A stretch of DNA of 24,000 nt from an uncultured Actinomycetota bacterium. GTDB lineage: Bacteria > Actinomycetota > Actinomycetes > Propionibacteriales > Propionibacteriaceae. Within the stretch, counting starts at the first letter, position 1. Every line of letters starts with the position of its first letter. Location of the stretch: the NCBI GenBank assembly GCA_963704665.1, contig OY969929.1:301458-325457 (forward strand). Direction: 5' to 3'. Both the position numbers and the translations under genes were made by a program. A model generated the notes under the pieces. That model was not told where the DNA came from. It did no database searches and was given only the letters and a program-made list of their open reading frames with translations. This document shows positions 6,484-22,643 of this stretch, in pieces.

Positions 6484-6735
6484 TCCTCGTCAGTGCCGCC
6501 ACCACGGCCACACTCGTTCAAAGGATTAGTCCTCGTACCCTGAAAGACGGCGACGAAGCTGCTGGTTCTGACCGTGCGACGCGGCAAGAGCGCGCTCAAG
6601 GGCAGCATGCTCGGCACCTGCGGCCTTGACCAGCCGTGGAGTAGAGCGTCGAGATTGGACCCATCCGATCCTTGCGAGGCCTCCGAAGTACGGACGAGTG
6701 CACGAAACGATCGTGCCCAGTCTCGGAGGAACTCA

Positions 6736-7374
6736 ATGAAGATCAAACTCCTGGCAGCCACAGCAGCAGGCGGAGCCGTTCTGCTCAGCACCGTCGCCCT
6801 GGGCGGCACCGCCGTCGCAACGGGCTACTCGCCCCAGCACCGGGACAACAAGGTAGAGGCGCATCTGGACCCCCTGAACAACTCCGGGGTCACCGGCCAC
6901 GCCCACGTCAAGGTGGAGGGGAAGAAGCTCGACGTGCATTATGAGGCGAAGGGCCTGGCGCCGAACCTGCCGCACGCCGCTCACATCCACTACGGCGAGC
7001 AGGCCACGCACGAGTGCCCCACGGTCCGGGACGACAAGAACGGCGACTTCCGGCTGAACGTGGTCGAGGGCGTGCCGCGCTACGGCCCGATCGCGGTGTC
7101 TCTCACCACCAAGGGCGACACCAGTCCGGCTAGCGGCCTCGCCGTCGACCGGTTCTCCACCGCCCCGAAGGGGGCCATCCACTACGACCGGACCGTGAAG
7201 ACCAGCAAGGCCGTTGCTCGCGCCATCCGCAACGGTGAAGGCGTCGTGGTCGTGCACGGCGTCGACTACAACAACAACGGCAAGTACGACTTCGACAGCG
7301 CAGGCAAGAGCGAGCTCAACGCCGCCCTGCCCGCCGAGGCGACCGACCCCGCAGCCTGCGGCGTCCTGCGCTGA
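6736..7374 (+). CDS. secreted CHRD-like / Cu,Zn-superoxide-dismutase-like beta-sandwich protein (His-rich)
   Basis: ATG 6736 is preceded by GGAGGA (6725-6730). A signal peptide is present. Motifs: LNNSGVTGHAHVKV, GLAPNLPHAAHIHYGEQATHECP, VVVVHGVDYNNNG and a C-terminal ..PAACGVLR. These recall the CHRD 'aHIHxG' and the SodC 'ACGVI' ends. The exact family is unresolved. Confidence 0.7.
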   Translation: MKIKLLAATAAGGAVLLSTVALGGTAVATGYSPQHRDNKVEAHLDPLNNSGVTGHAHVKVEGKKLDVHYEAKGLAPNLPHAAHIHYGEQATHECPTVRDDKNGDFRLNVVEGVPRYGPIAVSLTTKGDTSPASGLAVDRFSTAPKGAIHYDRTVKTSKAVARAIRNGEGVVVVHGVDYNNNGKYDFDSAGKSELNAALPAEATDPAACGVLR

Positions 7375-8498: not shown

Positions 8499-9569
8499 TC
8501 AGCCGGGGCGGAGGTCAGGAACGGCCCACAGCCCGCCAGACGCCGGGAACAGCACACCAGTCCGGTCGCCCGGCCGGAGGACAGTACCGAAGTGGGCTTG
8601 AACCTCCACTCTCGCTCGGCCGCCGTCACCAGTTGTGTCGAATTCCACGACGACATCGTGGTGCGGCCCAGACTGGCGGACCTGCACGACCAGCCCCTCG
8701 CGTGCAGTCGCCGTGCCAGGAGGAACGAGGGCAAGACGTTCTTTGCGAGCCAGAAGGATGGAAGGTCCGGCAACCTGCGCCGACGGCGGAACGGCGAACG
8801 TTCCCAGGGGTGAGTGGTGGACCCCGGAGCGGACGGTTCCGGGTAGCTCGTTGAACCCGCCCACCAGCCGGGCAACGGCCAACGTCCTCGGTGTCGTGTA
8901 AAGAGCCTGGACGCGGTCGAACTGCTCGATCCTACCGGCCACGAGCACGGCGACGCGTTCAGCCATCGCGGCTTCGTCGAGGTCATGGGTCACCATGACG
9001 ACCGTCGGGTCGAGGGCAGCACGGACCTCGGCGAGAAGCTGGTGCATCGAACTCCGCAGGGCGGTGTCGAGGGCACTGAACGGCTCGTCGAGCAGCATCA
9101 CCCGGGGGCGGGCGGCCAGAGCCCGGGCCAGGGCGACGCGCTGTTCCTGGCCACCGGACAGTTGCCCGGCCCGGCGACGACTGAGGTCCCCGAGCTCGAC
9201 CAGATCGAGGTACCTCTGAGCAGCCGCCCGGCGTTGAGACCGACTCCGACCCCGCAACCGGTCCGCGAAGGCCACGTTGTCCAGCACGCTGAGGTGCGGG
9301 AAGAGAAGCGGCTTCTGAAACATCACGGTCAGGTCGCGCCGCTCCGGTGGCACGCCGAGCATGCTCACCCCGTCGAGCAGCACGTCACCCGACGTGGCCG
9401 GCTCCAGGCCGGCGACGACCCGGAGGAGGGTCGACTTGCCGGACCCGGAGGGTCCGAGCACCGCGATCATCTCGCTGGCCCTGACGTCGAGACTGACGTC
9501 AGCCAGCGTCGGTCGCTCGTCGCCGCGGTAGTGATGGGTGATCGAGGCCAGGTCCAGGGGGGCGGTCAT
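8499..9569 (-). CDS. ABC transporter ATP-binding protein (YnjD/PotA/FbpC-like, with C-terminal TOBE-like domain)
   Basis: The start MTAPLDL (cat 9567-9569) overlaps the permease stop (ATGA). Motifs: Walker A GPSGSGKST, signature LSGGQEQRVALARAL, Walker B VMLLDEPFSALD, H-loop MVTHD. Confidence 0.9.
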   Translation of the reverse strand: MTAPLDLASITHHYRGDERPTLADVSLDVRASEMIAVLGPSGSGKSTLLRVVAGLEPATSGDVLLDGVSMLGVPPERRDLTVMFQKPLLFPHLSVLDNVAFADRLRGRSRSQRRAAAQRYLDLVELGDLSRRRAGQLSGGQEQRVALARALAARPRVMLLDEPFSALDTALRSSMHQLLAEVRAALDPTVVMVTHDLDEAAMAERVAVLVAGRIEQFDRVQALYTTPRTLAVARLVGGFNELPGTVRSGVHHSPLGTFAVPPSAQVAGPSILLARKERLALVPPGTATAREGLVVQVRQSGPHHDVVVEFDTTGDGGRARVEVQAHFGTVLRPGDRTGVLFPASGGLWAVPDLRPG

Positions 9570-10381
9570 CTGGACGCTGCCGTCGGACGACGCACGACGC
9601 AGGCGAAGACGGCCAGCGCCAGCAGCGGGGGCAGGCTGGCGGCGACGGACAGGGCCGCGATGAGCGGGTTGTTGCCGGATCCAGCCGCAGCGGCGCCGAT
9701 CAGCATGGGCATGGTGAGGATCTGACCGCCGCCGATGAGCAAGGTGACGGCGTAATCGCTCCATCCGACGAGGAACGCCAAGCCGACGCTTGCCACGAGA
9801 CCGGTGCTGGCGGCCGGAAGAGTGACATGCCAGCGGGCCTGCCGAGGGCTCGCGCCGAGCACTCGGGCCTGCTCCTCCAGCGCCGGGTCCAGGCGCAGAT
9901 AGGTGGCCCGCATGGTGAAGGTGGTGTACGGCAACGCGAACACGCTCAGGACCAGCACGACGGCGGCCTCACCCGGCACTCCCAGACGTAGGGTGACGAC
10001 GTCGAACCCCATGGCGACCGCGTACGGGGCCAGCACGACCGGGCCGAGCAGGACGACCGCCGGCAGTGCGGGACGGCGGACCAGGCGCCATCCCAGCGCA
10101 CGACCCGCGGCGGCCCCGAGGGGAGTGGCAACGAGGGCGACGGATACGCCCAGCAGCCCCGACCGGACCAGTGCGGCGATGGCACCCGAGTCCAGGGCCT
10201 CTTCCCAACCACGCAGTCCGAGGTCCTGCGGTAGCCGCGCAACCCCCGACCAGCGGGAGGTGCCGGCCCACAGCAGCAGCGGGGTCAAGGGGACCAGGAG
10301 CCAACCCAGCAGCAAAGCCGAGAGCAGCAGCTGCTGTGGTTGGACCTCCGTACGCCGGCGGCCGGCCAACGGGCTGGTCAC
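9566..10381 (-). CDS. ABC transporter permease (second membrane component)
   Basis: GTG 10379-10381 overlaps the upstream permease stop (GTGA). A multi-TM protein with an EAA-like loop, ..LDPALEEQARVLGASPRQARWHVTLP... Confidence 0.85.
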   Translation of the reverse strand: MTSPLAGRRRTEVQPQQLLLSALLLGWLLVPLTPLLLWAGTSRWSGVARLPQDLGLRGWEEALDSGAIAALVRSGLLGVSVALVATPLGAAAGRALGWRLVRRPALPAVVLLGPVVLAPYAVAMGFDVVTLRLGVPGEAAVVLVLSVFALPYTTFTMRATYLRLDPALEEQARVLGASPRQARWHVTLPAASTGLVASVGLAFLVGWSDYAVTLLIGGGQILTMPMLIGAAAAGSGNNPLIAALSVAASLPPLLALAVFACVVRRPTAASR

Positions 10382-11268
10382 CGGTCGACACCCAGCCGAT
10401 TCACCCAGGGAACGGCGAGCAACGTCGCGCACAGGGCCAGCCCGGTACCGACCACGGCGGTGGCGGCCGCCTGGGGTCGGGCGGCGATGTCGATATCGGT
10501 GAAGAGCCGGTAGGCCATCACCGGGAGCGGCTCAGGGTAGGCGCGGCCGAGTAACCGTGGCACTTCGTAGTTGCCGAGCGAGAAGAGGAACACGATCAAC
10601 GAGGTGGACGCCATCGCGGGTAACGCCAGCGGCAGCAGCACCCATCGCCACTGCGCAGCGGGAGCAGCGCCGAGCACCGCCGCCACTTCCCGCAGATCCG
10701 CGTACCGTGGCCCCACCGAGGCGACGATGACCAGGGCGACGAAGGCCGACTCCTTCCAGGCCAGCTCGATCACCGTGGCCCAGGGCCATGGCCCGCCGAC
10801 CAGCTCGGGCCAGGGCGTGCCCCGAGCCCCGAACCAGCGCTGGGCCAGGCCAGAATCAGAGAGCAGCAGCCCGGTCGTGACCGCACCGATCAGGTGCGGG
10901 ACGGTCAATACGGCGATGGCCAGCCCGAGTAGCAGTCGTCGGCCACGAACCGCGCAGAGCAGGACCGTGGCCAGGGTGAGACCGATCACCGCAGCCAGCA
11001 CAGTGGCGCCAGTGGACGCGAGCAGCGACTCGTGGGTGGCCACCCACAGGTCCCGGGCCTGGGTGGTGAAACCCTCGGCGCTCAGCCGAGGTTGCCCCAC
11101 CAGGGGCAACAACCCCAGACTCGTCGCCACGATCGCGACCAACGACGTGCCGGTCACCGTCACCACCAGCAGGACTGCCGGTACGACGAGATGGGCCTGG
11201 CCGAACGCCCTGTGGGCTCGCAGATCCCCAGCCCGCAGATCCGACGTACGGACGGGTGGCAGGTTCAC
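10378..11268 (-). CDS. ABC transporter permease (first membrane component)
   Basis: GTG 11266-11268 overlaps the SBP stop (GTGA). Six predicted TM helices. The EAA-like loop reads ..YADLREVAAVLGAAPAAQWRWVLLPL... Confidence 0.85.
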   Translation of the reverse strand: MNLPPVRTSDLRAGDLRAHRAFGQAHLVVPAVLLVVTVTGTSLVAIVATSLGLLPLVGQPRLSAEGFTTQARDLWVATHESLLASTGATVLAAVIGLTLATVLLCAVRGRRLLLGLAIAVLTVPHLIGAVTTGLLLSDSGLAQRWFGARGTPWPELVGGPWPWATVIELAWKESAFVALVIVASVGPRYADLREVAAVLGAAPAAQWRWVLLPLALPAMASTSLIVFLFSLGNYEVPRLLGRAYPEPLPVMAYRLFTDIDIAARPQAAATAVVGTGLALCATLLAVPWVNRLGVDR

Positions 11269-12506
11269 GATCCGGCTCCGAGCACATTCCTGCGCCAGCC
11301 GGCATCCAGCTTCGACACCCAGGACGAGGCCAGCTCGGGGTTGGCGTCCTGGGAGAGGACGTCGTAGGTCGGTACCACATCAGAGGTAGGAAGGCGTTCG
11401 AATCGCGCCTGGTCTGTGGGGGTCAGTCGACTGGTGTCGAGCACCGTGAACTGTCCCCAGGTGTCGGGATCGGCCTTGAGCGACTGCTGCTGGGGTGACA
11501 GGGCCAGGTTCGCCACCACCATCGCGCCCTCGGGGTCGCCCGCAGAGGAGGGAACGGCCAGGAAGCTGGCGTTCCCGAGGGTCCCCTCATCCAGGGGTAG
11601 CACCCGGGTGGTCTTCGGGAATGTGCCGTCCGCCACGAGCTTGGTGAGGGTCGCCGGCCCGTACGTCATGGTCATGTCGACCTGCCCGTCGGCGTAGAGC
11701 CGGTCCAGCGCGACCGCATCCCGGGGATAGGTCCCGCCCTGCCGCCACAACGATGGCTTGACTTCATCCAGCGCGTCCCAGAGGCCGGGGGTGAGCTGGT
11801 CGTAAGCGTCTTGGTCGAACTGCGCCGGGATCTTCGCATAACCGCCCGAGGTGGAGTAGAACACCCCGCGCAGGAACGCCGAGCCGGTGAAATCGGGCGG
11901 AGCAGGGTAGGTGAAGCGCCCGGGGTGGTCCTTCGCCCACTGCAGCACGCCTGACATCGACGTCGGTGGCGCGTCGACCCGCGCCGTGTCGTAGACCAAG
12001 GTGAACTGGGCCTTGTGCCACGGGGCCTCGCATCCCCCGACCTCGGTCCCGAAGTCCTGGCTGACCAGGGTGTCGTCGGGCGCGACGTAGGTCATGTTCG
12101 GCAGCAGAGAGGACCAGCCGCAGCGCCAGGCGTCGGCTTGCTTCCCGGTCGCGAAGTTGTCGCCGTTGACCCACACCAGGTCCACCGAGCCAGCGTCGGT
12201 ACCTGCCTGCCGCTCGGCCAGGATCCGGATCATGGCGTCGGAGGTGTCGGCCACCGGGACCCGCCGCAGGGTCACACCGAGCTTCGCCGCGGCCGGGACG
12301 AGGTCGTCGTCGACGTAGGCATTGCCCTGCTGGTCCCCGCCGTACATCCACAGGTCGACGGTCTGGCCCTGCGCCTGCTCGGAGATCTGGGACCAGGAGC
12401 GGGTCTCGGCCCCGGAGCCCACCGGTCGATCCGGTGCTGCGCAGGCCGAGACAGCCCATCCGAACAGTGCGGCAGCGAGAATGCATCGGGCCCGGCGGGC
12501 GGCCAT
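11265..12506 (-). CDS. ABC transporter substrate-binding lipoprotein, YnjB-type
   Basis: ATG 12504-12506 follows GGAGG (4-nt spacing). Lipobox VSAC. Blocks GQTVDLWMYGGD, GSVDLVWVNGDNF, HPGRFTYPAPPDFTGSAFL and VVANLALSPQQQ..KADP..WG resemble my recollection of the E. coli YnjB family. Needs HMM confirmation. Confidence 0.8.
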   Translation of the reverse strand: MAARRARCILAAALFGWAVSACAAPDRPVGSGAETRSWSQISEQAQGQTVDLWMYGGDQQGNAYVDDDLVPAAAKLGVTLRRVPVADTSDAMIRILAERQAGTDAGSVDLVWVNGDNFATGKQADAWRCGWSSLLPNMTYVAPDDTLVSQDFGTEVGGCEAPWHKAQFTLVYDTARVDAPPTSMSGVLQWAKDHPGRFTYPAPPDFTGSAFLRGVFYSTSGGYAKIPAQFDQDAYDQLTPGLWDALDEVKPSLWRQGGTYPRDAVALDRLYADGQVDMTMTYGPATLTKLVADGTFPKTTRVLPLDEGTLGNASFLAVPSSAGDPEGAMVVANLALSPQQQSLKADPDTWGQFTVLDTSRLTPTDQARFERLPTSDVVPTYDVLSQDANPELASSWVSKLDAGWRRNVLGAGS

Positions 12507-12609
12507 TGAACCTCCAGAGCGAAGAAGATGTCAGGTCGGGAACACTTCAGGAGGTCAGGGACTTCCCGTGGCAGGACCTTCCTCGTGCATCGTGACGTCA
12601 GGATCACTC

Positions 12610-13275
12610 ATGGAAAGAGCAATGCTGGTCAAGACAGGCGTTCTCGCGCTCATCATTGTCGGAGCGGTTGCGCTCGCATTGGTGTTCGGCACACCGGACA
12701 TCGAGGCGCTGAGGACGCGTGTCGAGGCAGCGGGAGCGTGGGGGCCGGCTCTGTTCTTCGCCCTCTACGTGGGGCTCTCCCTCGTTCCCTGCCCCAAAGC
12801 ACTCCTCACTGCTAGCGGAGGAGCACTGTTCGGGCTGGCCGCCGGTGCCGGGCTGTCTCTCAGCGCTGCCCTGATCGGGGCGGTCATCTCCTTCGGATTC
12901 GGGCGACTGCTCGGACGGGAGACCGTTGACCGGCTGATTCGAGGACGCTTGGCGCGGGTCGATGGACTCCTGAGGGACCGCGGTCTGTCTGCGGTCCTCC
13001 TCGTCCGCCTGGTGCCGTTGGTGCCCTATCTCGCGATCAACTACGCCTCGGGGCTCTCGGGGGTGAAGTTCCGCCACTTCGCGCTCGGGAGCGCACTGGG
13101 AATGGTGCCCGGGAGCCTCGCCTACGCGGCGCTCGGCGCGTACGGGACGAATCCCTGGGGCCTGGCCGCAGCCGGCTCGGCCTTGATCGTGCTCGCGGTC
13201 GGTGGGTCCTGGTTCGCGCGTCGGTTGGGGTCTCGCCACGGGGGCGTGACGGCCGCGAAGCGGGGCCATGCTTGA
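12610..13275 (+). CDS. TVP38/TMEM64 (DedA-superfamily, SNARE-associated PF09335-like) membrane protein
   Basis: ATG 12610. A multi-TM protein with the motifs ..LVPCPKALLTASGGALFGLAAGAGLS.. and ..LVRLVPLVPYLAINYASGLSGV.., typical of YdjX/YdjZ-type proteins. Confidence 0.85.
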   Translation: MERAMLVKTGVLALIIVGAVALALVFGTPDIEALRTRVEAAGAWGPALFFALYVGLSLVPCPKALLTASGGALFGLAAGAGLSLSAALIGAVISFGFGRLLGRETVDRLIRGRLARVDGLLRDRGLSAVLLVRLVPLVPYLAINYASGLSGVKFRHFALGSALGMVPGSLAYAALGAYGTNPWGLAAAGSALIVLAVGGSWFARRLGSRHGGVTAAKRGHA

Positions 13276-13975
13276 CACTGCGGCTCGACGGGTCCTGGAT
13301 CGGCCGTTGTCCGAGCTCGCGCGCCTGATCGACCGACCTTTCGTCAGCCCGAACGCGCTGACCCTGCTCGGCCTGGCGGCTGGGTTGGCCAGTGCTGCGA
13401 CCGCCGCATCGCAGGCGTGGTGGTGGTCCTTGGGGCTGTGGCTGTTGTCCCGGGCGATGGATGGACTCGACGGTCCTCTTGCTCGCCGACGCCGCGCCGC
13501 CGACGACGCCACGGAGGCGCGACGGTCGTCGGCCGGCGGCTTCCTCGACATCACCGCCGACATCACCGTGTACGGCGTGACCGTGGTCGGAGTCGCCATC
13601 GGGGCCACCCGGCAGTACGACGCGGCGTGGTTGCCCTTCCTGCTGGTCCTGTTGGCCTACTACGTGAACGGAGCAGCGTTCCTGGCCTTCTCCTCCATAG
13701 CCGAGCGGACCGGGCGCCAACGCGACGATGGTCGCTCTCTGAGCTTCCTCGGCGGACTGGCGGAGGGCGTCGAGACCATTGCCGTGCACTCTTTGTGGTT
13801 GGTTCTCCCCGGCCACGCCGAGATCATCGCCACGGTATGGGCCGCCTTCGTCGGGTTGAGCGCTGTCCAGCGGATCGTGGCCGGATTCAAGGACCTGTCC
13901 TCATCGACGGCACCCGACGCTCCCGCGCCTTGCTGTCGCACGTCAGCGTCCGCTGCTGACCCGCCACCTCCGTAG
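13268..13975 (+). CDS. CDP-alcohol phosphatidyltransferase family protein (YnjF-like)
   Basis: ATG 13268 overlaps the upstream stop by 8 nt. The signature D-x2-DG-x2-AR...G-x3-D-x3-D is present as AMDGLDGPLARRR...GGFLDITADITVY. Multi-TM. Confidence 0.85.
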   Translation: MLDTAARRVLDRPLSELARLIDRPFVSPNALTLLGLAAGLASAATAASQAWWWSLGLWLLSRAMDGLDGPLARRRRAADDATEARRSSAGGFLDITADITVYGVTVVGVAIGATRQYDAAWLPFLLVLLAYYVNGAAFLAFSSIAERTGRQRDDGRSLSFLGGLAEGVETIAVHSLWLVLPGHAEIIATVWAAFVGLSAVQRIVAGFKDLSSSTAPDAPAPCCRTSASAADPPPP

Positions 13976-15421
13976 CCGGGCCAGCACGCCCAGGGCACCG
14001 TGGGTGGCCGGACGGGCGAGTTGATCCTGCACGTCAGAAATCGCTGCGTTCCACGGGCCGTCGTTGTAGGTGGGGTACGCGTGGGTCACGCGAGCGAGAT
14101 CACGGGTCGTGAGGCCGCGGCTGATCGCGAGCGCCATCTCGGCCAGGGTCTCCCCGGCGCGTGGTCCGACCACGGTCGCCCCGAGAACCCGACCGTGCTT
14201 GTCGATGACGAGTCGGGTGAAACCGCTGGTCGCGCGCTCCGTCACCGCCCGGTCGACATGGGAGTGGGGCCAGTCGACCGTATGCAGCCCGCGTGGTGCC
14301 CGAGCAGTCTCGAGGCCGACCGCAGCCACTTCTGGATCGGTGAACGTGACCCGGGGCACCACCGTCAGGTCGACCGTGCGGCGCACCCCGAGGATGGCGT
14401 TCGACGCGGCGAGGCTCGCGTGCACACCGGCGGTGTGGGTGAACTGAGGGTGACCAGTGAGGTCGCCTGCCGCCCAGACATGGTGGTTGCTGCTGCGCAG
14501 ATGAGCGTCAACCATCACGAATCCGCGGTCGTCGACGGCCACACCCGCGGCGCTCAAACCGAGATCGTCGGTACGAGGTGTTCGACCCACCGCCACGAGG
14601 AGGCAGGAGAACGCGATCTCCTGGCCGCTTTCCAGGTGCAGCACCCCGGAGGCTGGACCGTCGGGTCGGACCTTCGTGACACCGGAGCCGGTGTAGATGT
14701 CGACACCGTCGGCGATCAATGAGCGGGTGAGTTCGGCTGCCGCTCGGGGGTCTTCGCGCGGCAGGATCCGGTCCGCGCCCTCGACGACTGAGACCGAGCT
14801 TCCGAGGCGAGCGAAGGCCTGACCCAACTCGCATCCGATGCTGCCGCCGCCGAGCACCACCAGATCAGCGGGAAGCTCGTCGAGTCCCCAGACGGTCTCA
14901 CTGGTCAGGAAGTCGACATCGCGGAGGCCCGGGACCGACGGCACCGCCGGTCCGGCGCCGGTAGCAACCAGTGCCTGTCGAAACCGAACGGTCGTGCCGT
15001 CCAGGTCGGCCGAGTGCGGTCCCGTGAATCGAGCGGTCGCTCGGCGGACGGTGACCGAGGCGTTCTCGAGGGCTTCGACGGAGTCGACGGGGGCGATGTG
15101 TTGGATCGTCGCGCGGACGTGGTCCATCACCTCGGCGAAGTCAACCGAGATCTCCCCGGTCCTGATGCCGAACTCGCGACTTCTGCGGGCGCTGGCGGCG
15201 ACGCCGGCCGCGGCCAGCAGCGCCTTCGACGGAACGCATCCGGTCCACAAGCAGTCACCTCCGGTGCGATCACGCTCCACCAGGAGCACGTGGGCGCCGA
15301 GCCGCGCAGCGGTCTTGGCGCCGACGATCCCGGCTGTCCCGCCTCCGACGACGAGGAAGTCCCAGGGCTCGTCCTGGGCGGCGGCGGAGTTTGCCGTCGG
15401 GCTCGACTGGTCGGCGGTCAT
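13943..15421 (-). CDS. class-I pyridine-nucleotide-disulfide oxidoreductase (FAD; Lpd/MerA-like, DedA-associated clade)
   Basis: The start MTADQSS (cat 15419-15421) overlaps the anti-sigma stop (ATGA). Motifs: FAD GxGxxG VVGGGTAGIVGA, redox CxxxxC GGDCLWTGCVPSK, NAD site VVLGGGSIGCE, and a C-terminal dimerisation domain with THAYPTYND. Confidence 0.9.
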   Translation of the reverse strand: MTADQSSPTANSAAAQDEPWDFLVVGGGTAGIVGAKTAARLGAHVLLVERDRTGGDCLWTGCVPSKALLAAAGVAASARRSREFGIRTGEISVDFAEVMDHVRATIQHIAPVDSVEALENASVTVRRATARFTGPHSADLDGTTVRFRQALVATGAGPAVPSVPGLRDVDFLTSETVWGLDELPADLVVLGGGSIGCELGQAFARLGSSVSVVEGADRILPREDPRAAAELTRSLIADGVDIYTGSGVTKVRPDGPASGVLHLESGQEIAFSCLLVAVGRTPRTDDLGLSAAGVAVDDRGFVMVDAHLRSSNHHVWAAGDLTGHPQFTHTAGVHASLAASNAILGVRRTVDLTVVPRVTFTDPEVAAVGLETARAPRGLHTVDWPHSHVDRAVTERATSGFTRLVIDKHGRVLGATVVGPRAGETLAEMALAISRGLTTRDLARVTHAYPTYNDGPWNAAISDVQDQLARPATHGALGVLARLRRWRVSSGR

Positions 15422-15696
15422 GGGGAGTCCTCGTCGCTGATGGTGGACAGGTACTCCCGCAGCCGATCGACGGACTGGGGGTCGACTCGTGAGACTCCTG
15501 ACCACCGGGACAGTGCCCGGTGCAACATCCGGTGTTCGGACAGGACGCGGGTGCACTTCTCGCAGGTCGCCAGGTGGACTTCGAGCCGCACGATTTCCCC
15601 GGGCGTGAGTGGGGCAGCCGGGTCGGCGTCGAGGTAGCGTTGGATGCGTCGTGCGGACCAGTGGCACGTCAGCATCTGACGCAGAGTCCCGATCAT
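15418..15696 (-). CDS. soluble zinc-binding anti-sigma factor (ZAS, RsrA/RshA-like; no TM segment)
   Basis: 92 aa. ATG 15694-15696 overlaps the sigma-factor stop (ATGA). H41-x3-C45-x2-C48 (HLATCEKC) plus Cys11 (LTCHW) parallel the RsrA C11/H37/C41/C44 arrangement. Confidence 0.8.
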   Translation of the reverse strand: MIGTLRQMLTCHWSARRIQRYLDADPAAPLTPGEIVRLEVHLATCEKCTRVLSEHRMLHRALSRWSGVSRVDPQSVDRLREYLSTISDEDSP

Positions 15697-16256
15697 GACG
15701 GATCTCCTTGAATGAGTGGGCTGGTTCGGAGCGACGTGCGGATGCGGTTCCGCGCACGACTGAGTCGTGACATCACGGTGCCGATGGGAACGCCCAACAG
15801 CGCGGCCGCTTCGGCATAGCTCAGGTCGTGGACGTCGACGAGGATGAGCGCGCTCCGGAAACGGGGATCCAGAGCACGGATCGCGAGGTCGAGATCGCCG
15901 TCGAGCTGGTGATCCACGAAGCTGTCTTCGGCGCTTTGCAGCTCTGGCTCTCCGAAGGCCGGTCGAGCGCTGCGGATGAGTTCCCAGTCGCCGACGGTTC
16001 CCGGTCGCCGGCGGCGGTGCAGGTTGGCATTGGTGTTGCGCAGGATGGTCAGCAGCCACGCCCGCGGATGTCGACCGTCGAAGCGATCGATCGCCCGGTA
16101 GGAACGCAGCAACGTCTCCTGCACGAGGTCCTCCGCGTCGGCCTTGTTCGTGGTGATCGACGAGGCCACGCGCAGAAGCACTTCGATCTCGGGCTCCACC
16201 AGCTGCCGGAAGGACTCTTTCCGGTCGGCGTCGACCGGTGGTGGGGAATCCGTCAC
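15693..16256 (-). CDS. ECF (sigma-70 family group 4) RNA polymerase sigma factor
   Basis: Region 2: DAEDLVQETLLRSYRAIDRFDGRHPRAWLLTILRN. Region 4: SYAEAAALLGVPIGTVMSRLSRARNRI. The start is placed at GTG 16254-16256 (187 aa). Alternatives are GTG 16335-16337 and ATG 16461-16463. Confidence 0.85.
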   Translation of the reverse strand: MTDSPPPVDADRKESFRQLVEPEIEVLLRVASSITTNKADAEDLVQETLLRSYRAIDRFDGRHPRAWLLTILRNTNANLHRRRRPGTVGDWELIRSARPAFGEPELQSAEDSFVDHQLDGDLDLAIRALDPRFRSALILVDVHDLSYAEAAALLGVPIGTVMSRLSRARNRIRTSLRTSPLIQGDPS

Positions 16257-16666
16257 GACGAGGAAACCCGCTGAGCGCGCGACGCGATTCCCGCGACGTA
16301 CGGCGGTGTTGAGTTCTGTGGATCCGACATCGGTCACCCTCCTGGCAGTGCGCTCTGCGGCTGGTCCGTCGCCGGTCCGAGACGCCACCTTTCCAGATGT
16401 CGGGCCCGACGTCGCGATGTGATCACTGCGCTGGTCCCGCGGAGAGCAGCCACCACCCGACATCGCCGAGTCCGGTACCCCCTCTTCCGTCGCTACCGCC
16501 GCGACGCCCACGCCCTGCCGCCTCCTCCGCCGGTCGGGCAGATCTGACGGATCGTTTTCCCTCCTTTGTGGACGCCGGGAAGGGATCAGGCTTGCCACCG
16601 GGTTTCCCTCCTGACGGTTCCGTCGAGGACCCGCCTTCACGACCAGCCGAGCCACCAGGAGTCCTC

Positions 16667-17134
16667 ATGCGCACACTCAGCCTTCCGTTCCTCGACCACT
16701 TCCGGGGCCTCGCGCCCCTGGTGCTCCGCCTGGGTGTCGGCCTGGTCTTCGCAGTCCACGGTTTCAGCAAGCTGACCAACGGACCCGCCCAGTTCTCCTC
16801 GATGTTGACCGGACTCGGGGTCGGAGCGCCTCTGGTCTTTGCCTGGCTCGTCACCATCGCCGAGCTCGTCGGCGGATTGCTGATCATCGTCGGGCTGTTG
16901 ACTCGGCTGGCGACCCTCCCCTTGATCGCCACCCTGGCCGGGGCCATCCTGCTGGTCAAGGTCGACGTGGGGATCATCGCTCCCATGGGCTCTCCCATGC
17001 CGGGGGCCGAGGTCGACATCGCGTTGCTCGCGGGTCTGGTTGCCTTGCTGTTCATGGGACCGGGTCGGCTCTCGATCGACCGCATGGTCGGCGTCGAAGC
17101 CCAAGCGGACCGCTCGTTTGCCGAAGCTCACTGA
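16667..17134 (+). CDS. DoxX family membrane protein
   Basis: ATG 16667 follows AGGAG (16657-16661). 155 aa with four hydrophobic helices and a DoxX-like N-terminus, LVLRLGVGLVFAVHGFSKL. Confidence 0.85.
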   Translation: MRTLSLPFLDHFRGLAPLVLRLGVGLVFAVHGFSKLTNGPAQFSSMLTGLGVGAPLVFAWLVTIAELVGGLLIIVGLLTRLATLPLIATLAGAILLVKVDVGIIAPMGSPMPGAEVDIALLAGLVALLFMGPGRLSIDRMVGVEAQADRSFAEAH

Positions 17135-17260
17135 TCAGAGTCATCGGTGCACGCCGAGGCTGGGACGCAACACAGCGCGCACGCAGCCCACTCCGCGCAC
17201 CTGCCGTAGCGACCTGCCCAGGATCAGTGATGACCCAGGCCCAACCCGTCCACCGCGAGC

Positions 17261-17794
17261 GTGGCGGTGATGCGGCGGCCCGGCTGCCCGTCCTGTACAG
17301 CTCTGCGGCGGGGCCTGAGCCGTGCCGGTGTGTCCACGACCGAGCACGACATCTGGTCTTCGAAGGCCGCCGCAGCTCGGGTGCGCAGAGCCACGGGCGG
17401 TAACGAGGCAGTTCTCACCGTCTTCGTGGGCGACCGGGCGCTGGAGAACCCGACCGTTCGTCCAGTGGTCGACGCGATCACGGGGGTCGATCCCGCGTAC
17501 CAGCCCTTTCTGGCGGCTGCGGGCCGGACACGAGCCGGCGACGCGAGGACTCATCTCGCAGGGCTCATCCGGACGCTGGTGATCGCGGTGTTGTGGACCA
17601 GGTCGTCGCCCGGAGCCCGGCAACCACCGGGCATGTTGCGCCGCTCCTCCTGTCGGCGGCGTGGCCATGGGTTGTTGGTCAAGACGCTTCATCCCCCGAT
17701 CCCTCCGCTCGACGGAGGATCGTGTTCGCCGCCATCATCGGCCTCGGGACCACCGGGGCGCTCACGGCGGCGTTGGCTGTGGCCGGTCGCCTGA
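17261..17794 (+). CDS. mycoredoxin/glutaredoxin-like protein (CPSC active site) with an anomalous ~100-aa C-terminal extension; 3' extent uncertain
   Basis: The first ~75 aa, AVMRRPGCPSCTALRRGL...DIW...AAARVRRATGGNEAVLTVFVGDRALENP, match the mycoredoxin/NrdH-like pattern. The remainder is low-complexity and overlaps a TM-rich alternative frame (17593 onward). Confidence 0.5.
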   Translation: MAVMRRPGCPSCTALRRGLSRAGVSTTEHDIWSSKAAAARVRRATGGNEAVLTVFVGDRALENPTVRPVVDAITGVDPAYQPFLAAAGRTRAGDARTHLAGLIRTLVIAVLWTRSSPGARQPPGMLRRSSCRRRGHGLLVKTLHPPIPPLDGGSCSPPSSASGPPGRSRRRWLWPVA

Positions 17795-18047: not shown

Positions 18048-19124
18048 TTACATCTGGTACATCCTCAACCACCGCCGATCGATGGACCGCTTGAGTCGCA
18101 GGGGCCCGACTCCGTACCACCACCAGCGCCCCCACACCGCCAGCCCCATCCCGCCACCGAGATCGAGGATCGACAGCGAACGGCGTCGAGGCCGGTACGT
18201 CGGAAGAGCGTCACCCTTGAGTCGGGCGAGCAGGCTACGGAGCAGCACCGGTCCTTGCCGCACCCCATGCACTCCCACGCGAGGCAGCGGATGCGGAAGG
18301 AAGAGCGCGCAATCGCCTACTGCGTAGACGTCGTCGTGGTCGACATGTTGGAGCGTGGCCCGGACGGGGACACCGCGGGCATCGCCGAGTCCGGTCTCGG
18401 CGATCAGTGGGGGTGCCGTGAGCCCGGTCGCGAGCACGGCCATGTCATAGGACATCTCGAACGCGTCACCGACTAACGCACGCTCGCCGAGGTCACGCAC
18501 CATGGACCTGGTACGGACGTTCACGCCGCGTTCGGCGAGCAGCCGGAGAACCCGCTGACGCGCTCCTCCGGACAGTTCGGCACCGATGACGGTGCCGGAG
18601 TCGACCAGGCAGACTCGGGCCACGTCCGGTCGCACCGACAGGTGAGTCGCCAGCTCCAGACCGGATCCGCCACCACCGACTACGACCACCGTTGCACCGT
18701 TGCCGTTCACCGGACTCTGCAGCCGGGCGCCGACCTCGGCGAGATCACTCAACGGTTTCACCTTGAGGACAGCCGGATCGACGTGCATCCCCACCGGCGC
18801 AACCACACTACCGATGTTGATCGAGAGCACGTCGTAGGTCAGGTTCCCGCCGTCCGACGTGGTTGCGACCCGGGTCTGGAGATCGAGGGATTCCAGCGTG
18901 CCCTCGTGAAACTCGATCATCGACGCGTCGGCCAGGGCTCGCACATCGATACGTCCGGTATCGCCGGACAGCACGCCGGCGGCTGTCGCCGACGCGACCC
19001 CGCTGTAGTGGAAGAATCGAGGTGCCAGCAGATGAACCCGGTATCCAGCCGAGATCAGTTTCGCGGCCTGCTTCACCACGTACAGGTGGGCGTGACCAGC
19101 CCCGACCAAGAGCAGAACCGTCAT
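18048..19124 (-). CDS. FAD-dependent pyridine-nucleotide-disulfide oxidoreductase (NDH-2 / sulfide:quinone-oxidoreductase-like)
   Basis: 358 aa. The N-terminus VLLLVGAGHAHL is a GxGxxH-type FAD fold. A second dinucleotide site is VVVVGGGGSGLE. VYAVGDCA is present. The amphipathic, Trp-rich C-terminus (GRWWWYGV..WLRMYQM) suggests membrane association. Confidence 0.85.
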   Translation of the reverse strand: MTVLLLVGAGHAHLYVVKQAAKLISAGYRVHLLAPRFFHYSGVASATAAGVLSGDTGRIDVRALADASMIEFHEGTLESLDLQTRVATTSDGGNLTYDVLSINIGSVVAPVGMHVDPAVLKVKPLSDLAEVGARLQSPVNGNGATVVVVGGGGSGLELATHLSVRPDVARVCLVDSGTVIGAELSGGARQRVLRLLAERGVNVRTRSMVRDLGERALVGDAFEMSYDMAVLATGLTAPPLIAETGLGDARGVPVRATLQHVDHDDVYAVGDCALFLPHPLPRVGVHGVRQGPVLLRSLLARLKGDALPTYRPRRRSLSILDLGGGMGLAVWGRWWWYGVGPLRLKRSIDRRWLRMYQM

Positions 19125-19331
19125 TCGGCGACCTGGGGACGGTCAGTGAGCGAGAGAACTGGATCCTCGGCGAACCGCGGTGGAAAGAATTCATCGAACG
19201 CACCGTCATGGTGTCGTCCCGCCCTCCACCGCACCCGCGTCCGAACGCGGAAAACCGGGGTTGTCGAGTTGCCGGGCTGTGCGCAGGTGGTCATCAACCT
19301 GGGAAGAAGAGTCGAGCGCCTCACGTGCGGT

Positions 19332-19952
19332 CTACAGCCGCTCGGGGTCAGCTGGAGGTACCGCCGCGCTGAGCTGCAAGACCGTGTCGACGCTCCAGCC
19401 GTCCGCGGCGTTGCTGCCATAGCAGCAGTCCCGGATCCCGCCGTCGGGATCGAGGAGGAAGTCAGCGGGCAGCCCGAGATGATCACCGATGGTCAGTGAG
19501 CCCTGCAGCGAACGGTGCCCTACGACGCTGCGGACGTAGGTGGCGAGTGCCGCGGGGTGGAGCAGCGACCGCACGCTCGAGGTCACCTCGAATTCGGCGT
19601 ACCACCGCTCCTCCGGGTCGGGCACCGTCGGTAGCCCCAACTGGCGCTCATGCGTGCGCACCTGGGCTTCGGTGGACTTGAACACGACGAACTCAGTGAC
19701 CCCCGCCGCCTCGAGCTCCGCCCGGCGCTGGGTGAACGGCCGTAGGTGCTCCGCGCAGATCGGGCAGCCGGCGAAGCGACGCACCTGCAGGTGAGTGAGC
19801 CCGTCGGCCGCCGGGAACCGCAGCGGGCCTTCGGTCGTGTCGACCGTCCGGACGTCGACACGCTCCCCGACCAGCCTGGTCATGACGTGCTGCTCAGCAT
19901 CATGGGTCACACCGTAGTTCGGCCGGACGAGGACGCCCGACAGGTCAATCAC
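19332..19952 (-). CDS. peroxiredoxin-like (AhpC/TSA-redoxin fold) protein
   Basis: ..LQVRRFAGCPICAEHLRPF....GVTEFVVFKS....LPADFLLDPDGGI.. shows a thioredoxin-fold CxxC and a typical peroxiredoxin-like family layout. GTG 19950-19952 or ATG 19881-19883 could be the start. Confidence 0.7.
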   Translation of the reverse strand: MIDLSGVLVRPNYGVTHDAEQHVMTRLVGERVDVRTVDTTEGPLRFPAADGLTHLQVRRFAGCPICAEHLRPFTQRRAELEAAGVTEFVVFKSTEAQVRTHERQLGLPTVPDPEERWYAEFEVTSSVRSLLHPAALATYVRSVVGHRSLQGSLTIGDHLGLPADFLLDPDGGIRDCCYGSNAADGWSVDTVLQLSAAVPPADPERL

Positions 19953-19990
19953 GTCTCCGTGGGGTTTCCCCCGAATCGTGGGGGGTCTTC

Positions 19991-20792
19991 TCAGGCCGCG
20001 ACCGGTGGGCGGCCGGTCAGGTTCTCGTAGGCGATCGGGCTCACCACATGGGCGCTGCTGTGCCTGCGGGGGCGCAGGCCCAGCCGTCGCTCATCGTGCG
20101 GTGGAATCGTTCGATCTTGCCGTTGGCCTGGGGCCGGTAGGGCCGGGTCGGTTTGTGGGTGATCCGGAGCTCGGTGCAGGCATGGGACGTGTAGGCCGAT
20201 CCGTTGTCGGACAGCACCCGTTCCACGATGACCCCTTGGGCGGCGAACCAGGCGGTCGCCCGTTGGAGCACCCCGATCGCGGTGACGGCTTTCTCGTCAG
20301 TGCAGATTTCGGCGTAGCAACCCGGGAAGGGTCATCGATGACGGTGTGCACGTAGCTCGGTGCCGAATGTGGTGACCTCGACATGGATCGGCGGGGGATG
20401 GTCGTGCGCGTGGCGGCGTAGCGGCGCAGCGGTTCACCGGTGACCCGGTCGAGATGGGACAGCCGGGTCATCCGGCATCGGGTCAACACCGCATGGACCG
20501 TCGATGCCGCCACGCTGAGCCGGCCGGCGATCTGGACGGGGCCGAGCCGGTGCTGCCACCGCAGCCGCAGATCGTCAGCCGACCGTGGGGTCGGTCGAGC
20601 GTGCGGTCGTGAGGTCCGGTCGCCCAGTGGCGGCGGTCGGTGAAGGTCCGCACGTTTCGGGTCGACGACCAGCCGGGCCAGCCGCAGACGAGCACGTGGA
20701 GTCAGCTGAGCGTTTTAGCGTGGGTTATGGAGGCCTCCTGGTCGGCGAAGCGGTTCCTCGGACAGCTCCACTTCACCACCGGAGGCCTTCAT
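19991..20792 (-). pseudogene. IS481-family transposase relic (in-frame stop, frameshifts, internal deletions)
   Basis: Minus-strand fragments in different frames: ..HNPR*NAQLTPRARLRLARLVVD.., ..DRTSRPHARP..LRLRWQHRLGPVQIAGRLSVAASTVHAVLTRCRMTRLSHLDRVTGEPLRRY.., HAHDHPPPIHVEV.., and YVHTVIDD..YAEICTDEKAVTAIGVLQRATAWFAAQGVIVERVLSDNGSAYTSHA..THKPTRPYRPQANGKIERFHRTM.. (DDE core). The tail ..SPIAYENLTGRPPVAA* ends at 19991. Confidence 0.8.
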
Positions 20793-20845
20793 CTGTCAGA
20801 TCGACTCACCGCCGAAACGCGGTACCACCTCTCTGGCCATCGCAC

Positions 20846-21625
20846 TCAGCTGGCGAGGGCTAGGACCGCCTGGACGATCACGTAAGCAGCAACGGCGAAG
20901 ACGAGGTAGGCGAACCAGCGTCGCAACTTCTCGCTGGGTAGGTGCGGTGCGAGCCGTCCCGCGACGAGGGAGCTGAGGATGGCAGCGCCGGTGAAGGCGG
21001 CGGCCGTGGGTAGGTCGAGGTGGGCGTCGCCGAGATGGGCGGTGAAGCCGGCGGCGGAGTTGATGACGATGACCACGAGGGAGGTCGCTGTTGCGGTGAC
21101 CATGGGAAGGCCGAGGAGCAGGGTGAGTGCGGGGATGATGAGGAAGCCGCCGCCGACGCCGAAGAGTCCGGTCAGGAACCCCACGACAACACCCGACGCC
21201 GCGGCTTTGGGCAGGCAGCTGCGCCAGTTCACCCCACCTCCGGGGAGGGCGCAGGAGCCGCCGACGTCGTCGGAGCTTCGGAGCATCCGTACCGCGGTGA
21301 CCACCATGACCGCGGCGAAGCCGAGCAGCAGGACCGACGGGTCGAGAAGTCGGTTGACCGCGGTGCCGGCGAAGGCGGCGACGGCGCCGGAGGCGCCGAA
21401 GATGGCGGCGAGACGCCATTGCACCTGGCGCAGTCGGGGCAGCACGGCGGTGGCCGAGGAGATGCCGACCACCAGCAGGGAAGTCGGGACGGCCACGGAG
21501 AGGGGCTGTCCGACGCCGTAGACCAGGGCGGGGACGGCCAGGATGGAACCGCCCCCACCGAGAAGTCCGAGTAGCGCGCCGATGACGAGTCCGAGGACCA
21601 GGGCCACCAGCAGGGTGGTGATCAC
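20846..21625 (-). CDS. TauE/SafE (TSUP, DUF81) family sulfite/organosulfonate exporter
   Basis: GTG 21623-21625 overlaps the upstream stop (GTGA). 259 aa, multi-TM, with duplicated GGGxxxxP motifs (LLGGGGSILAVPAL and LFGVGGGFLIIPAL). Confidence 0.9.
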   Translation of the reverse strand: MITTLLVALVLGLVIGALLGLLGGGGSILAVPALVYGVGQPLSVAVPTSLLVVGISSATAVLPRLRQVQWRLAAIFGASGAVAAFAGTAVNRLLDPSVLLLGFAAVMVVTAVRMLRSSDDVGGSCALPGGGVNWRSCLPKAAASGVVVGFLTGLFGVGGGFLIIPALTLLLGLPMVTATATSLVVIVINSAAGFTAHLGDAHLDLPTAAAFTGAAILSSLVAGRLAPHLPSEKLRRWFAYLVFAVAAYVIVQAVLALAS

Positions 21626-22212
21626 GCCGCGGCCGGGTCGGGGGTCGGGAGCCGGTCGAGGAGTTGCTGTGCGTCGGCCTGAGTTCCGCGGTTGTGGGGG
21701 AGGGCTGAGAGCAGCCGGCCCATGGTGCAGGTGTCGGTGAGGGCGGAGGCGGTGAGGCCGGCGCCGATGCCGCCGGCGAGGAGGACCGACTTCGGCGCCC
21801 ACCGACTCGCGAGGACGCCGGCGAGGACGAGGCTCCCGGCGACGAGGCGGACCTGCCGCTCGAGCGACCATCGTGGTCGGCCGTGGATGACCTGGCCGCC
21901 GGCGGCGGTGAAGCCGGGGACGCCGGTCTTGAGGACGTGCAGGTTGTCCATGCCGGTGCCGGCGAGTCGTTGGCGGGCTTGGTCGGCGCGCGCGCCGGAC
22001 TGACAGACGAGGACGACCTTGCGGTCGAGTCGGGCGGCCAGCTGGGCGGCGTGCTCGCCGACCAGGTCGAGCGGCAGGTTGTAGGAGCCGGCGATGTGGG
22101 TGGTCTCGAACTCGGCGGGGCTGCGGACGTCGAGGACAGTGACGGCGTCGGCGTCGGTCATCCAGTCGATGACGGTGGCAGCGTCGACATCGGTGGGGGC
22201 AGAGGTGGGCAT
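21622..22212 (-). CDS. rhodanese domain fused to DUF2892 membrane domain (YgaP-like sulfurtransferase)
   Basis: ATG 22210-22212 is preceded by AAGGAG at 6-nt spacing. The rhodanese active-site loop is VCQSGARA. The C-terminus WSLERQVRLVAGSLVLAG...ALTDTCTMGRLLSALPHN is DUF2892-like. Confidence 0.85.
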   Translation of the reverse strand: MPTSAPTDVDAATVIDWMTDADAVTVLDVRSPAEFETTHIAGSYNLPLDLVGEHAAQLAARLDRKVVLVCQSGARADQARQRLAGTGMDNLHVLKTGVPGFTAAGGQVIHGRPRWSLERQVRLVAGSLVLAGVLASRWAPKSVLLAGGIGAGLTASALTDTCTMGRLLSALPHNRGTQADAQQLLDRLPTPDPAAA

Positions 22213-22277
22213 GGGGAACTCCTTGCGGTCGAGGGCGCCGGGATCAGGGATGGTGAGCTGCAGCGCTGCTGCGGGGG

Positions 22278-22643
22278 TCAGGTGACTCTGCCTGGCTTGC
22301 CGCCGTTGGTGATGACGGGCAGGCCGGCGGCGGCCCAGGCGTTCATGCCACCGGTCAGGTTGGTGGCCTGGTAGCCGTGGCGGGTGAGCGTGTCGGCAGC
22401 GATCGCGGAGCGTCGACCGGACCGGCAGACGGTGATGATCGGCCGGTCGGTGGGCAGGTCGTCGAGGTGGTCTTGGAGCTGGCTGAGGACGAGGTGACGG
22501 GCTTGGGGGGCGTGCCCGGCCTGCCACTCGGATGATTCGCGGACGTCGAGCAGCACGGCCCCGTGGCTGGCCACCGCCTGATGAGCCCGGGCGGCGGTCA
22601 TGGTCGCGGGTCGGGTGAACAGGGCGAGGAGTTTGCGGATCAT
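22278..22643 (-). CDS. single-domain rhodanese (GlpE/PspE-like sulfurtransferase)
   Basis: ATG 22641-22643 overlaps the upstream stop (ATGA). 121 aa. LLDVRESSEWQAGHAP and the active-site loop TVCRSGRRS are present. Confidence 0.85.
   Translation of the reverse strand: MIRKLLALFTRPATMTAARAHQAVASHGAVLLDVRESSEWQAGHAPQARHLVLSQLQDHLDDLPTDRPIITVCRSGRRSAIAADTLTRHGYQATNLTGGMNAWAAAGLPVITNGGKPGRVT

Follow-up and report, generated by a model that had tools for sequence, protein, structure and literature searches.

A conserved ECF sigma factor operon with a soluble zinc anti-sigma factor, a MerA-like flavoprotein reductase and a predicted Ynj-like regulon

Why are a sigma factor, a small zinc-binding inhibitor and a flavoprotein reductase encoded together in one tightly packed operon, and which genes would such a switch control? 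We addressed this question for a stretch of 24,000 nucleotides from an uncultured bacterium of the Propionibacteriaceae (assembly GCA_963704665.1, contig OY969929.1, positions 301,458 to 325,457), which is referred to here as the window and whose first letter is position 1. The window has an actinobacterial G+C content (68%), and three successive genes on its minus strand encode an extracytoplasmic function (ECF) sigma factor, an anti-sigma factor and a reductase. A preliminary description of this DNA had interpreted the three genes as a self-contained, RsrA-type thiol-stress circuit in a persulfide and sulfide context. Based on the present analysis, the operon, the soluble zinc-associated anti-sigma factor (ZAS), the non-standard character of the reductase and the link to a DedA protein were confirmed, while the self-contained nature, the RsrA-type assignment and the sulfide context were not. 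The reading that we favour, and that we hold to be probable though by no means certain, is that of an autoregulated ECF sigma/cytoplasmic zinc-anti-sigma switch with a dedicated flavoprotein disulfide reductase in its operon and a conserved membrane-associated module as its regulon.

To define what is conserved around these genes, 86 related loci were gathered and then searched with the window proteins, and all conservation counts below are out of 86 unless stated otherwise. The sigma factor gene (15693..16256), the anti-sigma factor gene (15418..15696) and the reductase gene (13943..15421), all on the minus strand, occur as a triad in 79/86 loci; the sigma gene is found in 83/86 and the reductase gene in 79/86, the loci without it mostly being contig ends, with true absence in two of them (L078 and L086). 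The sequence ATGA at 15693-15696 contains both the sigma stop codon and the anti-sigma start codon, and a second ATGA at 15418-15421 joins the anti-sigma stop codon to the reductase start codon in the same manner, both at the positions given in the preliminary description. These 4-nt overlaps are kept in 80 of 84 and 75 of 79 related loci, respectively, and 6-8 nt ahead of both the anti-sigma and the reductase start lies an AGGAG or GAGGA that resembles a Shine-Dalgarno sequence. Culturable carriers of the system include Nocardioides sp. JS614, Janibacter sp. GS2, Sanguibacter antarcticus and Isoptericola jiangsuensis. Since the overlaps are retained across related loci, the coupled operon has been selected and is not a matter of chance. 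The triad is a translationally coupled, conserved operon, and domain matches, coupling and conservation all agree with its description as an ECF sigma/soluble ZAS/class-I flavoprotein reductase operon. A plasmid search with window positions 12300-17200 returned only short matches of 67-75% to merA-like genes, which argues that the locus is not a known plasmid element.

The first gene of the operon encodes a protein of 187 residues with Sigma70_r2 (61.7 bits) and Sigma70_r4_2 (55.2 bits) domains, and is thus an ECF (group IV) sigma factor. The ECF superfamily model TIGR02937 was the only NCBIfam model whose cutoff the protein passed (87.2 versus 42.9). The sigma factor is not a SigH/SigR orthologue (ECF12), as it reached 100.9 bits against a cutoff of 251.55 with the SigH_actino model TIGR02947; SigE models gave scores of 98.5 and 99.8, near the SigH_actino score, and the protein remained far below the NCBIfam SigE and SigM models too. 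Among solved structures the nearest sigma factors are those of Mycobacterium tuberculosis, with SigH (84 bits) followed by SigE (78 bits), and the clade appears to be roughly equidistant from mycobacterial SigH and SigE. In the preliminary description the gene began at a GTG codon at 16337. We rejected this start because a conserved promoter (16292-16265) lies inside the proposed N-terminal extension and because homologous sigma factors are only 186-187 residues long. Homologue length and promoter placement both favour GTG 16256, where the gene most likely starts.

The predicted autoregulatory promoter of the sigma gene (16265..16292, minus strand) consists of GGGAA at 16292-16288, a spacer of 18 nt and GGGTT at 16269-16265. 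The motif GGGAA-N18-GGGTT was found with at most one mismatch in 79 of 83 loci, and its end is invariably 8 nt from the sigma start codon, which suggests that the transcript of the autoregulated operon is probably leaderless or nearly so. Promoters of the GGAA...GTT class are used by SigH/SigR/SigE-like ECF sigma factors. A position-weight matrix (PWM) built from the sigma-promoter sites, applied at a threshold of 18.5, gave 179 matches in 2.96 Mb of related loci compared to a single match in shuffled sequence. Grouped by downstream gene, with gene orientation taken into account, these matches precede the sigma gene in 76 cases, a gene for the substrate-binding protein (SBP) of an ABC importer in 54, a gene for a VTT-domain protein in 13 and others in 33. 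Just three sites in the window exceed the threshold: the sigma promoter itself (22.9); a second copy at 12541..12567 (minus strand, GGGAA-N17-GTGTT, 19.7) ahead of the SBP gene (ATG 12506), with an equivalent in 54 loci; and a third copy at 16577..16604 (plus strand), the strongest (26.9), ahead of a DoxX-family gene (ATG 16667). The circuit is therefore not self-contained, as had been proposed, because the motif is also found ahead of the ABC operon and, in the window, ahead of DoxX, and because the conserved unit comprises about 10 genes. A scan of the window for sigma-70 promoters and terminators was uninformative.

The motif is partly palindromic, in that GGGAA reverse-complements the TTCCC that follows the -10 GGG. 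The site between the divergent SBP and VTT genes may be a bidirectional promoter, and the additional conservation of GGGAAGTCCC at SBP promoters agrees with this idea. On the opposite strand, positions 12538-12567 of the window contain GGGAAC-N17-GACTT (PWM score 14.0), a weaker reverse reading that faces the VTT gene.

Apart from the triad, the conserved unit consists of an NDH-2-like flavoprotein, a VTT/DedA membrane protein, a CDP-alcohol transferase and the ABC importer. The importer is YnjBCD-like and encoded at 8499..12506 (minus strand) by genes for the SBP (11265-12506), two permeases (10378-11268 and 9566-10432) and an ATPase (8499-9764), the true start of which is probably internal to that open reading frame (ORF). 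The SBP matches the YnjB model NF008633/PRK11622 (455.7 bits versus a cutoff of 203), and in BLASTP comparisons with Escherichia coli K-12 it is 36% identical to YnjB (E 2e-66), the ATPase is 39% identical to YnjD, and both permeases match halves of YnjC. These four genes are present in 62-64 of the loci. Divergent from the SBP gene lies the gene for the VTT/DedA protein (12610..13275, plus strand; VTT_dom, E 1.6e-24), which is of the TVP38, COG0398 type, shares about 30% identity with YdjX and YdjZ of E. coli and is present in 65/86 loci. The next gene encodes a YnjF-like CDP-alcohol phosphatidyltransferase (13268..13975, plus strand) with a CDP-OH_P_transf domain, which is 32% identical to E. 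coli YnjF over its full length and was found in 67/86 loci. With its clustering kept in 62-67 loci, this set of genes represents a module of the YnjBCD/YnjF/YdjX type. The CDP-alcohol transferase and reductase genes converge and share 33 nt at their 3' ends (13943-13975), and no intrinsic terminator was detected between the two. An Rfam scan for a riboswitch that might name the transporter substrate found none upstream, but only a tRNA.

The flavin adenine dinucleotide (FAD)-dependent oxidoreductase encoded at 18048..19124 (minus strand) had been described as similar to sulfide:quinone oxidoreductase (SQR). It contains no catalytic cysteines beyond its GDC FAD motif and looks like a protein of the NDH-2/TIGR03169 type, with a TIGR03169 score of 198.9 that is below the cutoff of 310. 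In the 49/86 loci that have it, its gene is the immediate upstream neighbour of the sigma gene or else follows the reductase gene directly, as the fourth gene of the operon, and in a Sanguibacter locus (L001) it overlaps the sigma gene by 4 nt. A HAD-family hydrolase gene, which is absent from the window, accompanies the module in 33/87 loci (among them L001, L007, L010, L011, L019 and L020), where it follows the ABC ATPase gene or diverges from the sigma gene; in L053 it carries the motif.

In other genomes, the motif also precedes accessory genes, namely those for TlpA-like redoxin lipoproteins, often behind a DUF427 gene, and for glutaredoxin, AhpD/CMD-family, radical-SAM, membrane and zwf-like proteins. 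At the glutaredoxin and radical-SAM genes the motif is located 8 nt before the start codon, as it is for sigma. The motif-bearing operon of DUF427 and TlpA-like lipoprotein genes occurs in L048, L054, L057 and L065, and the motif-bearing radical-SAM gene in L004 and L071, while L067 has the motif at a glutaredoxin gene (-9470) and at a zwf-like, glucose-6-phosphate dehydrogenase-like gene (+1763). The DoxX-family membrane protein of the window (16667..17134, plus strand; Pfam DoxX, E 4.7e-19; ATG verified) was found near the module in one of the 86 loci and carries the motif only in the window and in its closest relative, L031. Judged by this distribution, DoxX is a genome-specific recruit to the predicted regulon.

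What signal, then, would the switch receive? The anti-sigma factor is only 92 residues long and matches Pfam zf-HC2 (PF13490) with 23.9 bits, just over the cutoff of 22.2. Its N-terminus reads MIGTLRQMLTC11 and its zinc motif H41LATC45EKC48. The maximum 19-residue Kyte-Doolittle hydropathy is 0.66, with a maximum of 1.06 among 120 listed homologues, which shows that the protein is without a membrane segment; its length, its solubility and its C11 plus H41xxxC45xxC48 arrangement are thus as first described. At least 397 relatives were found in the databases, the best 120 of which are 63-91% identical and nearly all 92 residues long, and which come from Nocardioides, Marmoricola, Janibacter, Knoellia, Sanguibacter, Dermatophilaceae and many metagenome-assembled genomes; the exact protein itself has no entry in the assembly index. 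The preliminary description had suggested a check of ligand conservation, and C11, H41, C45 and C48 proved invariant in 121 of 121 aligned sequences. With its conserved zf-HC2/HxxxCxxC motif and its gene next to that of its ECF sigma factor, the protein can be classed as a soluble class I ZAS; the invariance of the ligands tells us only that the zinc site is intact, and no more. Three further histidines, H12, H55 and H59, are near-invariant (at least 90% of the family), with H12 adjoining C11 and H55 and H59 spaced i, i+4, and these might form a second metal or ligand site.

An intact zinc site is not yet a redox sensor. The diamide sensitivity of RsrA is set by the cysteine-flanking residues E39, E40, L45 and E46 within KFEHHFEECSPCLEK, and the redox-insensitive RsiW of Bacillus subtilis reads VLNEHLETCEKCRKH (Jung et al., PMC3177212). 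The family consensus around the zinc motif is RLExHLATCE(K/R)C(T/S)x, and the four determinant positions are taken by A, by T, by T or S and by a residue that varies between Q, R and E, so that none of the four RsrA determinants is present. The flanks HLATCEKC match HLETCEKC of RsiW and not HFEECSPCLE of RsrA, and the protein fails the RsrA equivalog model TIGR03988 (20.1 bits versus a cutoff of 62.5). The claim of RsrA-like redox sensing was therefore not upheld. Whether the anti-sigma factor was used alone or in a profile of 33 sequences, searches of PDB sequences returned insignificant matches only (RsiW, E 0.42; DdvA, E 0.63). In the AlphaFold2 (AF2) model of the monomer (three helices, pLDDT 79), residues 32-67 are drawn as one helix, and the model is uninformative about the zinc site.

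These data bring in a rival explanation, in which the zinc has a structural role only, as it does in RsiW, and the sigma factor is freed in another way, for example by regulated proteolysis, by phosphorylation-triggered degradation, or because a partner, for instance the co-translated reductase or the NDH-2-like flavoprotein, captures the anti-sigma factor. The system would then report membrane/lipid or transport status rather than thiol oxidation. Degradation of the M. tuberculosis anti-sigma factor RseA is triggered by phosphorylation. The zinc-motif region is identical to the redox-insensitive RsiW segment at 8-9 of 15 positions, with 0/4 RsrA determinants, and the family profile has its best PDB match, a weak one, in RsiW. 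Moreover, the core regulon consists of transport and lipid genes, and the anti-sigma factor is 60-91% identical across orders over its whole length, which suggests more than one binding partner. Zinc motifs are also often non-sensory (PMC7406223). Against this, the anti-sigma factor contains no transmembrane (TM) or extracytoplasmic domain that could receive an envelope signal, 72% of the soluble class-I anti-sigma factors carry a zinc motif, an enrichment that has been taken as cytoplasmic redox sensing (PMC7406223), and the accessory regulon members are thiol-redox proteins. We consider the structural-zinc explanation unlikely. The solubility of the protein, the enrichment of zinc motifs among its class, the thiol-disulfide accessory regulon and the analogous systems of Neisseria and Haemophilus (see below) favour a thiol-reactive signal as the likeliest input only modestly; thiol sensing by the anti-sigma factor is plausible.

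The third gene of the operon encodes a protein of 492 residues that carries GGDCLWTGCVPSK, with C57 and C62 as the redox pair within the CLWTGC that had been noted before. It matches Pyr_redox_2 (215 bits), Pyr_redox (81) and Pyr_redox_dim (82.5), and its FAD and NAD(P)H domains, dimerisation domain and N-terminal CxxxxC identify it as a class I pyridine-nucleotide disulfide oxidoreductase. C57 and C62 are kept in 71-72 of 73 orthologues. The motif tHaYPT.nDGpW is conserved in this set too, and a C-terminal cysteine is absent from all 73. The reductase falls below every NCBIfam cutoff listed, including those of all enzyme-specific models, the best match being the PRK06370 'FAD-containing oxidoreductase' subfamily (427.5 versus 620), and we refer to it as a member of the MerA-like (PRK06370) clade. 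Three known enzymes were tried and rejected. For mercuric reductase (MerA), the score was 380.3 against 454.45 (TIGR02053), and the C-terminal Cys pair is missing, only the Tyr feature being present. For dihydrolipoyl dehydrogenase (Lpd), it was 336.8 against 408.8 (TIGR01350), with HAYPT.ND in place of the HAHPT..E dyad, and for mycothione reductase (Mtr) 239.3 against 501 (NF005884) and 199.9 against 635.65 (TIGR03452). The reductase is thus not an ordinary Lpd or Mtr orthologue, and neither is it a MerA. The nearest solved structures are MerA 5x1y (E 2e-79) and then Lpd 1ebd. In the alignment to 1ebd the catalytic His-Glu dyad is replaced by Tyr...Asp, and in that to 5x1y this Tyr corresponds to the metal-site Tyr of MerA, with both the C-terminal Cys pair and the N-terminal metal-binding domain missing. 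Because the dyad is replaced, simple disulfide exchange of the mycothione, CoA or lipoamide type appears unlikely.

Relatives of the reductase were sought among 1.8 billion representative proteins. Eight of those with a length of 705-784 residues (38-46% identity) were tested, and each proved to be a fusion of VTT_dom, Pyr_redox_2 and Pyr_redox_dim; DEP and zf_CopZ fusions are also among the relatives. By sequence similarity, VTT-reductase fusions are among the nearest relatives outside the orthologue group of the reductase. The VTT/DedA-reductase fusion is reported to be the commonest one for COG0398 (YdjX-type) DedA proteins and is unexplained (PMC10127716). The existence of DedA-reductase fusions and the resulting link to the adjacent TVP38 gene, both put forward in the preliminary description, are thus well founded, and the fusions lend Rosetta-stone support to a functional partnership of the reductase with the neighbouring VTT protein.

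The relationship with MerA raises the possibility that the system senses and detoxifies soft metals or metalloids (Cu(I), Hg(II), tellurite, selenite), with the metal(loid) displacing the anti-sigma zinc and the MerA-like reductase and the DedA-type protein reducing or otherwise handling it. MerA is the best solved relative of the enzyme and shares its Tyr in place of the catalytic His, and a zf_CopZ-reductase fusion is found among its relatives. The near-invariant extra histidines of the anti-sigma factor (H12, H55 and H59) would also fit. In addition, the window contains a copper-type island (1437-7374) with genes for a P-type ATPase with YHS and HMBD domains (1437-3791), a DUF305 protein (4565-5548) and a CHRD protein (6574-7374). 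There is also a faint selenium flavour in the region 18048-19952 (minus strand), where the NDH-2-like flavoprotein has its best match in the 'N-terminal to SelD' family (TIGR03169) and the next gene encodes a SelL-related redox protein (NF040769). However, both of these matches are below cutoff, the reductase has neither the C-terminal Cys pair nor the NmerA domain and scores below the MerA cutoff, and the module has no conserved regulator or transporter of the mer, ter or cop kind. Copper genes, like the SelL-related gene, were found in 0/86 related loci. Since the island genes accompany the sigma module in none of these loci, they look like a separate insertion. A tRNA-Thr(CGT) gene (864-939, plus strand) adjoins the island. 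We regard the metal(loid) explanation as quite unlikely.

The window also bears on the proposal with which the analysis began, namely that the pair is a SigR/RsrA paralogue and that adjacent sulfide-oxidation genes (SQR-like, rhodanese and persulfide dioxygenase (PDO)) generate a disulfide or persulfide of mycothiol or CoA for the reductase to recycle. SigR and SigH use promoters of the class GGAAT-N18-GTT, which the motif resembles, and the zinc ligands of the anti-sigma factor are conserved. The motif-bearing DoxX gene of the window is followed by an ORF for a mycoredoxin/glutaredoxin-like protein (17261..17794, plus strand) of 177 residues, whose Glutaredoxin domain covers residues 5-59 only; its TIGR02200 score of 50.7 is below the cutoff of 89.5. 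A CPSC active site is located in the glutaredoxin part (the first ~60 residues), the remainder being of low complexity. A sulfur cluster at 20846-23944 (minus strand) encodes a TauE exporter, a rhodanese with a YgaP-like TM domain and a metallo-beta-lactamase (MBL)-fold protein with a rhodanese domain. A gene for a PDO-rhodanese lies within 10 kb in 8/86 loci; TauE and DoxX are each present in one locus and the mycoredoxin-like ORF in seven. The sulfide genes are therefore not conserved neighbours, which makes them weak evidence for a persulfide substrate. Furthermore, an integrase-core (rve) fragment (20041-20331, minus strand) stands between the module side of the window and the sulfur cluster, and no motif scoring 11 or more was found ahead of the genes at 18048-23944. 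For these reasons we rejected the sulfide-oxidation genes as the functional context of the switch. As described above, the sigma and anti-sigma factors fail the SigH/SigR and RsrA models, the 'SQR-like' protein is without SQR cysteines, and the reductase does not have the His-Glu dyad that glutathione reductase, Mtr and Lpd use for disulfide exchange. This proposal is, in our view, very unlikely.

How the switch differs from its closest known counterparts can be seen from a comparison with five systems. SigR-RsrA of Streptomyces coelicolor and SigH-RshA of M. tuberculosis (ECF12) share with it a small soluble HxxxCxxC anti-sigma factor encoded directly downstream of the ECF sigma factor, a fourth zinc ligand provided by an N-terminal Cys, an autoregulated promoter of the GGAA...GTT type and thiol-redox proteins among the regulon, SigH also being the nearest solved sigma factor. 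Unlike in these systems, both regulators here fail the orthologue models, the flanks of the zinc motif are devoid of the RsrA redox determinants, the spacing from C11 to the His is 30 residues and not 26, the anti-sigma gene is translationally coupled to one for a flavoprotein reductase, and the place of trxBA or mycothiol genes in the core regulon is taken by genes for an ABC importer, a CDP-alcohol transferase and a DedA protein. In the ECF13 systems of Neisseria (SigE/MseR) and Haemophilus (RpoE2/HrsE), the anti-sigma factors are soluble ZAS proteins of peptide size, the switch answers to oxidants, and the small regulon includes a DoxX operon, with envelope thiol or methionine repair as a further feature (PMC7907618). 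Those systems are proteobacterial and, in contrast to the present one, have no reductase in the sigma operon and no Ynj-like module. SigW-RsiW of B. subtilis has a nearly identical zinc motif (HLxTCEKC), but RsiW is membrane-anchored, contains structural zinc and is removed by regulated intramembrane proteolysis, whereas the anti-sigma factor described here has no TM segment.

The fourth system is the E. coli ydjXYZ-ynjABCD(E)/ynjF cluster, in which homologous genes are likewise clustered: those for the SBP (36% identity), the permease halves, the ATPase (39%), the CDP-alcohol transferase (32%) and the TVP38-type DedA protein (30%). Redox partners are found in both; those of E. coli are the ferredoxin-like YdjY, the AhpD-like YnjA and the rhodanese YnjE. 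The E. coli cluster is activated by FNR and is functionally uncharacterised (PMC3688515), and it differs from the present module in this regulation and in lacking an ECF/ZAS pair, a MerA-like reductase and an NDH-2-like flavoprotein. Finally, the reductase shares its fold, the CxxxxC pair and the Tyr in place of the catalytic His with MerA, the PRK06370 clade and the VTT-reductase fusions, and it is 38-46% identical to the VTT-fused relatives. It differs from MerA by the absence of the NmerA domain and the C-terminal CC pair and by scores below all curated cutoffs, and from the fusions in that its VTT partner is encoded by a separate neighbouring gene.

In the reading that we favour, the anti-sigma factor at rest would hold zinc on C11, H41, C45 and C48 and sequester the sigma factor. 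An oxidant, an electrophile or a thiophilic metal(loid) would then attack the zinc-thiolate site, or some other input would inactivate the anti-sigma factor, upon which the freed sigma factor would transcribe its own, probably leaderless, operon, giving positive feedback as well as the reductase. It would also transcribe the YnjBCD-like importer genes, probably the divergent VTT/CDP-alcohol-transferase pair and, in the organism of the window, DoxX, possibly together with the mycoredoxin-like gene. The reductase would act at the membrane with the VTT/DedA protein, using NAD(P)H and the C57/C62 disulfide, on a substrate tied to whatever the module imports or makes, and newly made anti-sigma factor would shut the switch off and thereby close the loop.

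Several observations weigh against this scenario. The zinc-motif flanks of the anti-sigma factor resemble those of RsiW and not those of RsrA, the RsrA equivalog model is failed, and a Foldseek comparison of the AF2 monomer with the PDB gave nothing at E < 1. The promoter call comes from comparative sequence, and the part-palindrome could formally also be the operator of a dimeric regulator. No Ynj-like genes were found beside two VTT-reductase fusion genes that were examined elsewhere. A characterised member was not found in the literature on ECF/anti-sigma pairs with a mercuric reductase or DedA protein, or on the ynj/ydj genes. To judge by the searchable literature, this clade, the hard-wired reductase and the Ynj-type regulon have yet to be characterised, while ECF/ZAS pairs as a kind are known.

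A bolder idea, which we would rate as rather doubtful at present, is that the triad forms the regulatory and redox head of an ancient membrane pathway, common to the E. coli ydj/ynj genes and built from the COG0398 DedA/VTT protein, the YnjF-type transferase and the YnjBCD importer, in which the MerA-like reductase works physically with the DedA protein, as the widespread occurrence of DedA-reductase fusions would suggest, and reduces a thiol, disulfide or chalcogen compound that is either imported or linked to lipid. If true, this would amount to a new redox-dependent lipid or cofactor pathway and would explain the DedA-reductase fusions. The regulon of the clade is unusually clean and computationally defined, and through it three orphans become open to experiment together: the cluster of the E. 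coli ydjXYZ-ynjABCDEF type, the COG0398 DedA proteins and the DedA-flavoprotein reductase fusions. With a soluble sensor and a handful of promoters, the inducing signal should be quickly findable. Moreover, as a soluble ZAS with an RsiW-like motif and yet a thiol-redox regulon, the anti-sigma factor would provide a test case for how generally the sequence rules hold by which redox-sensitive zinc anti-sigma factors are recognized.

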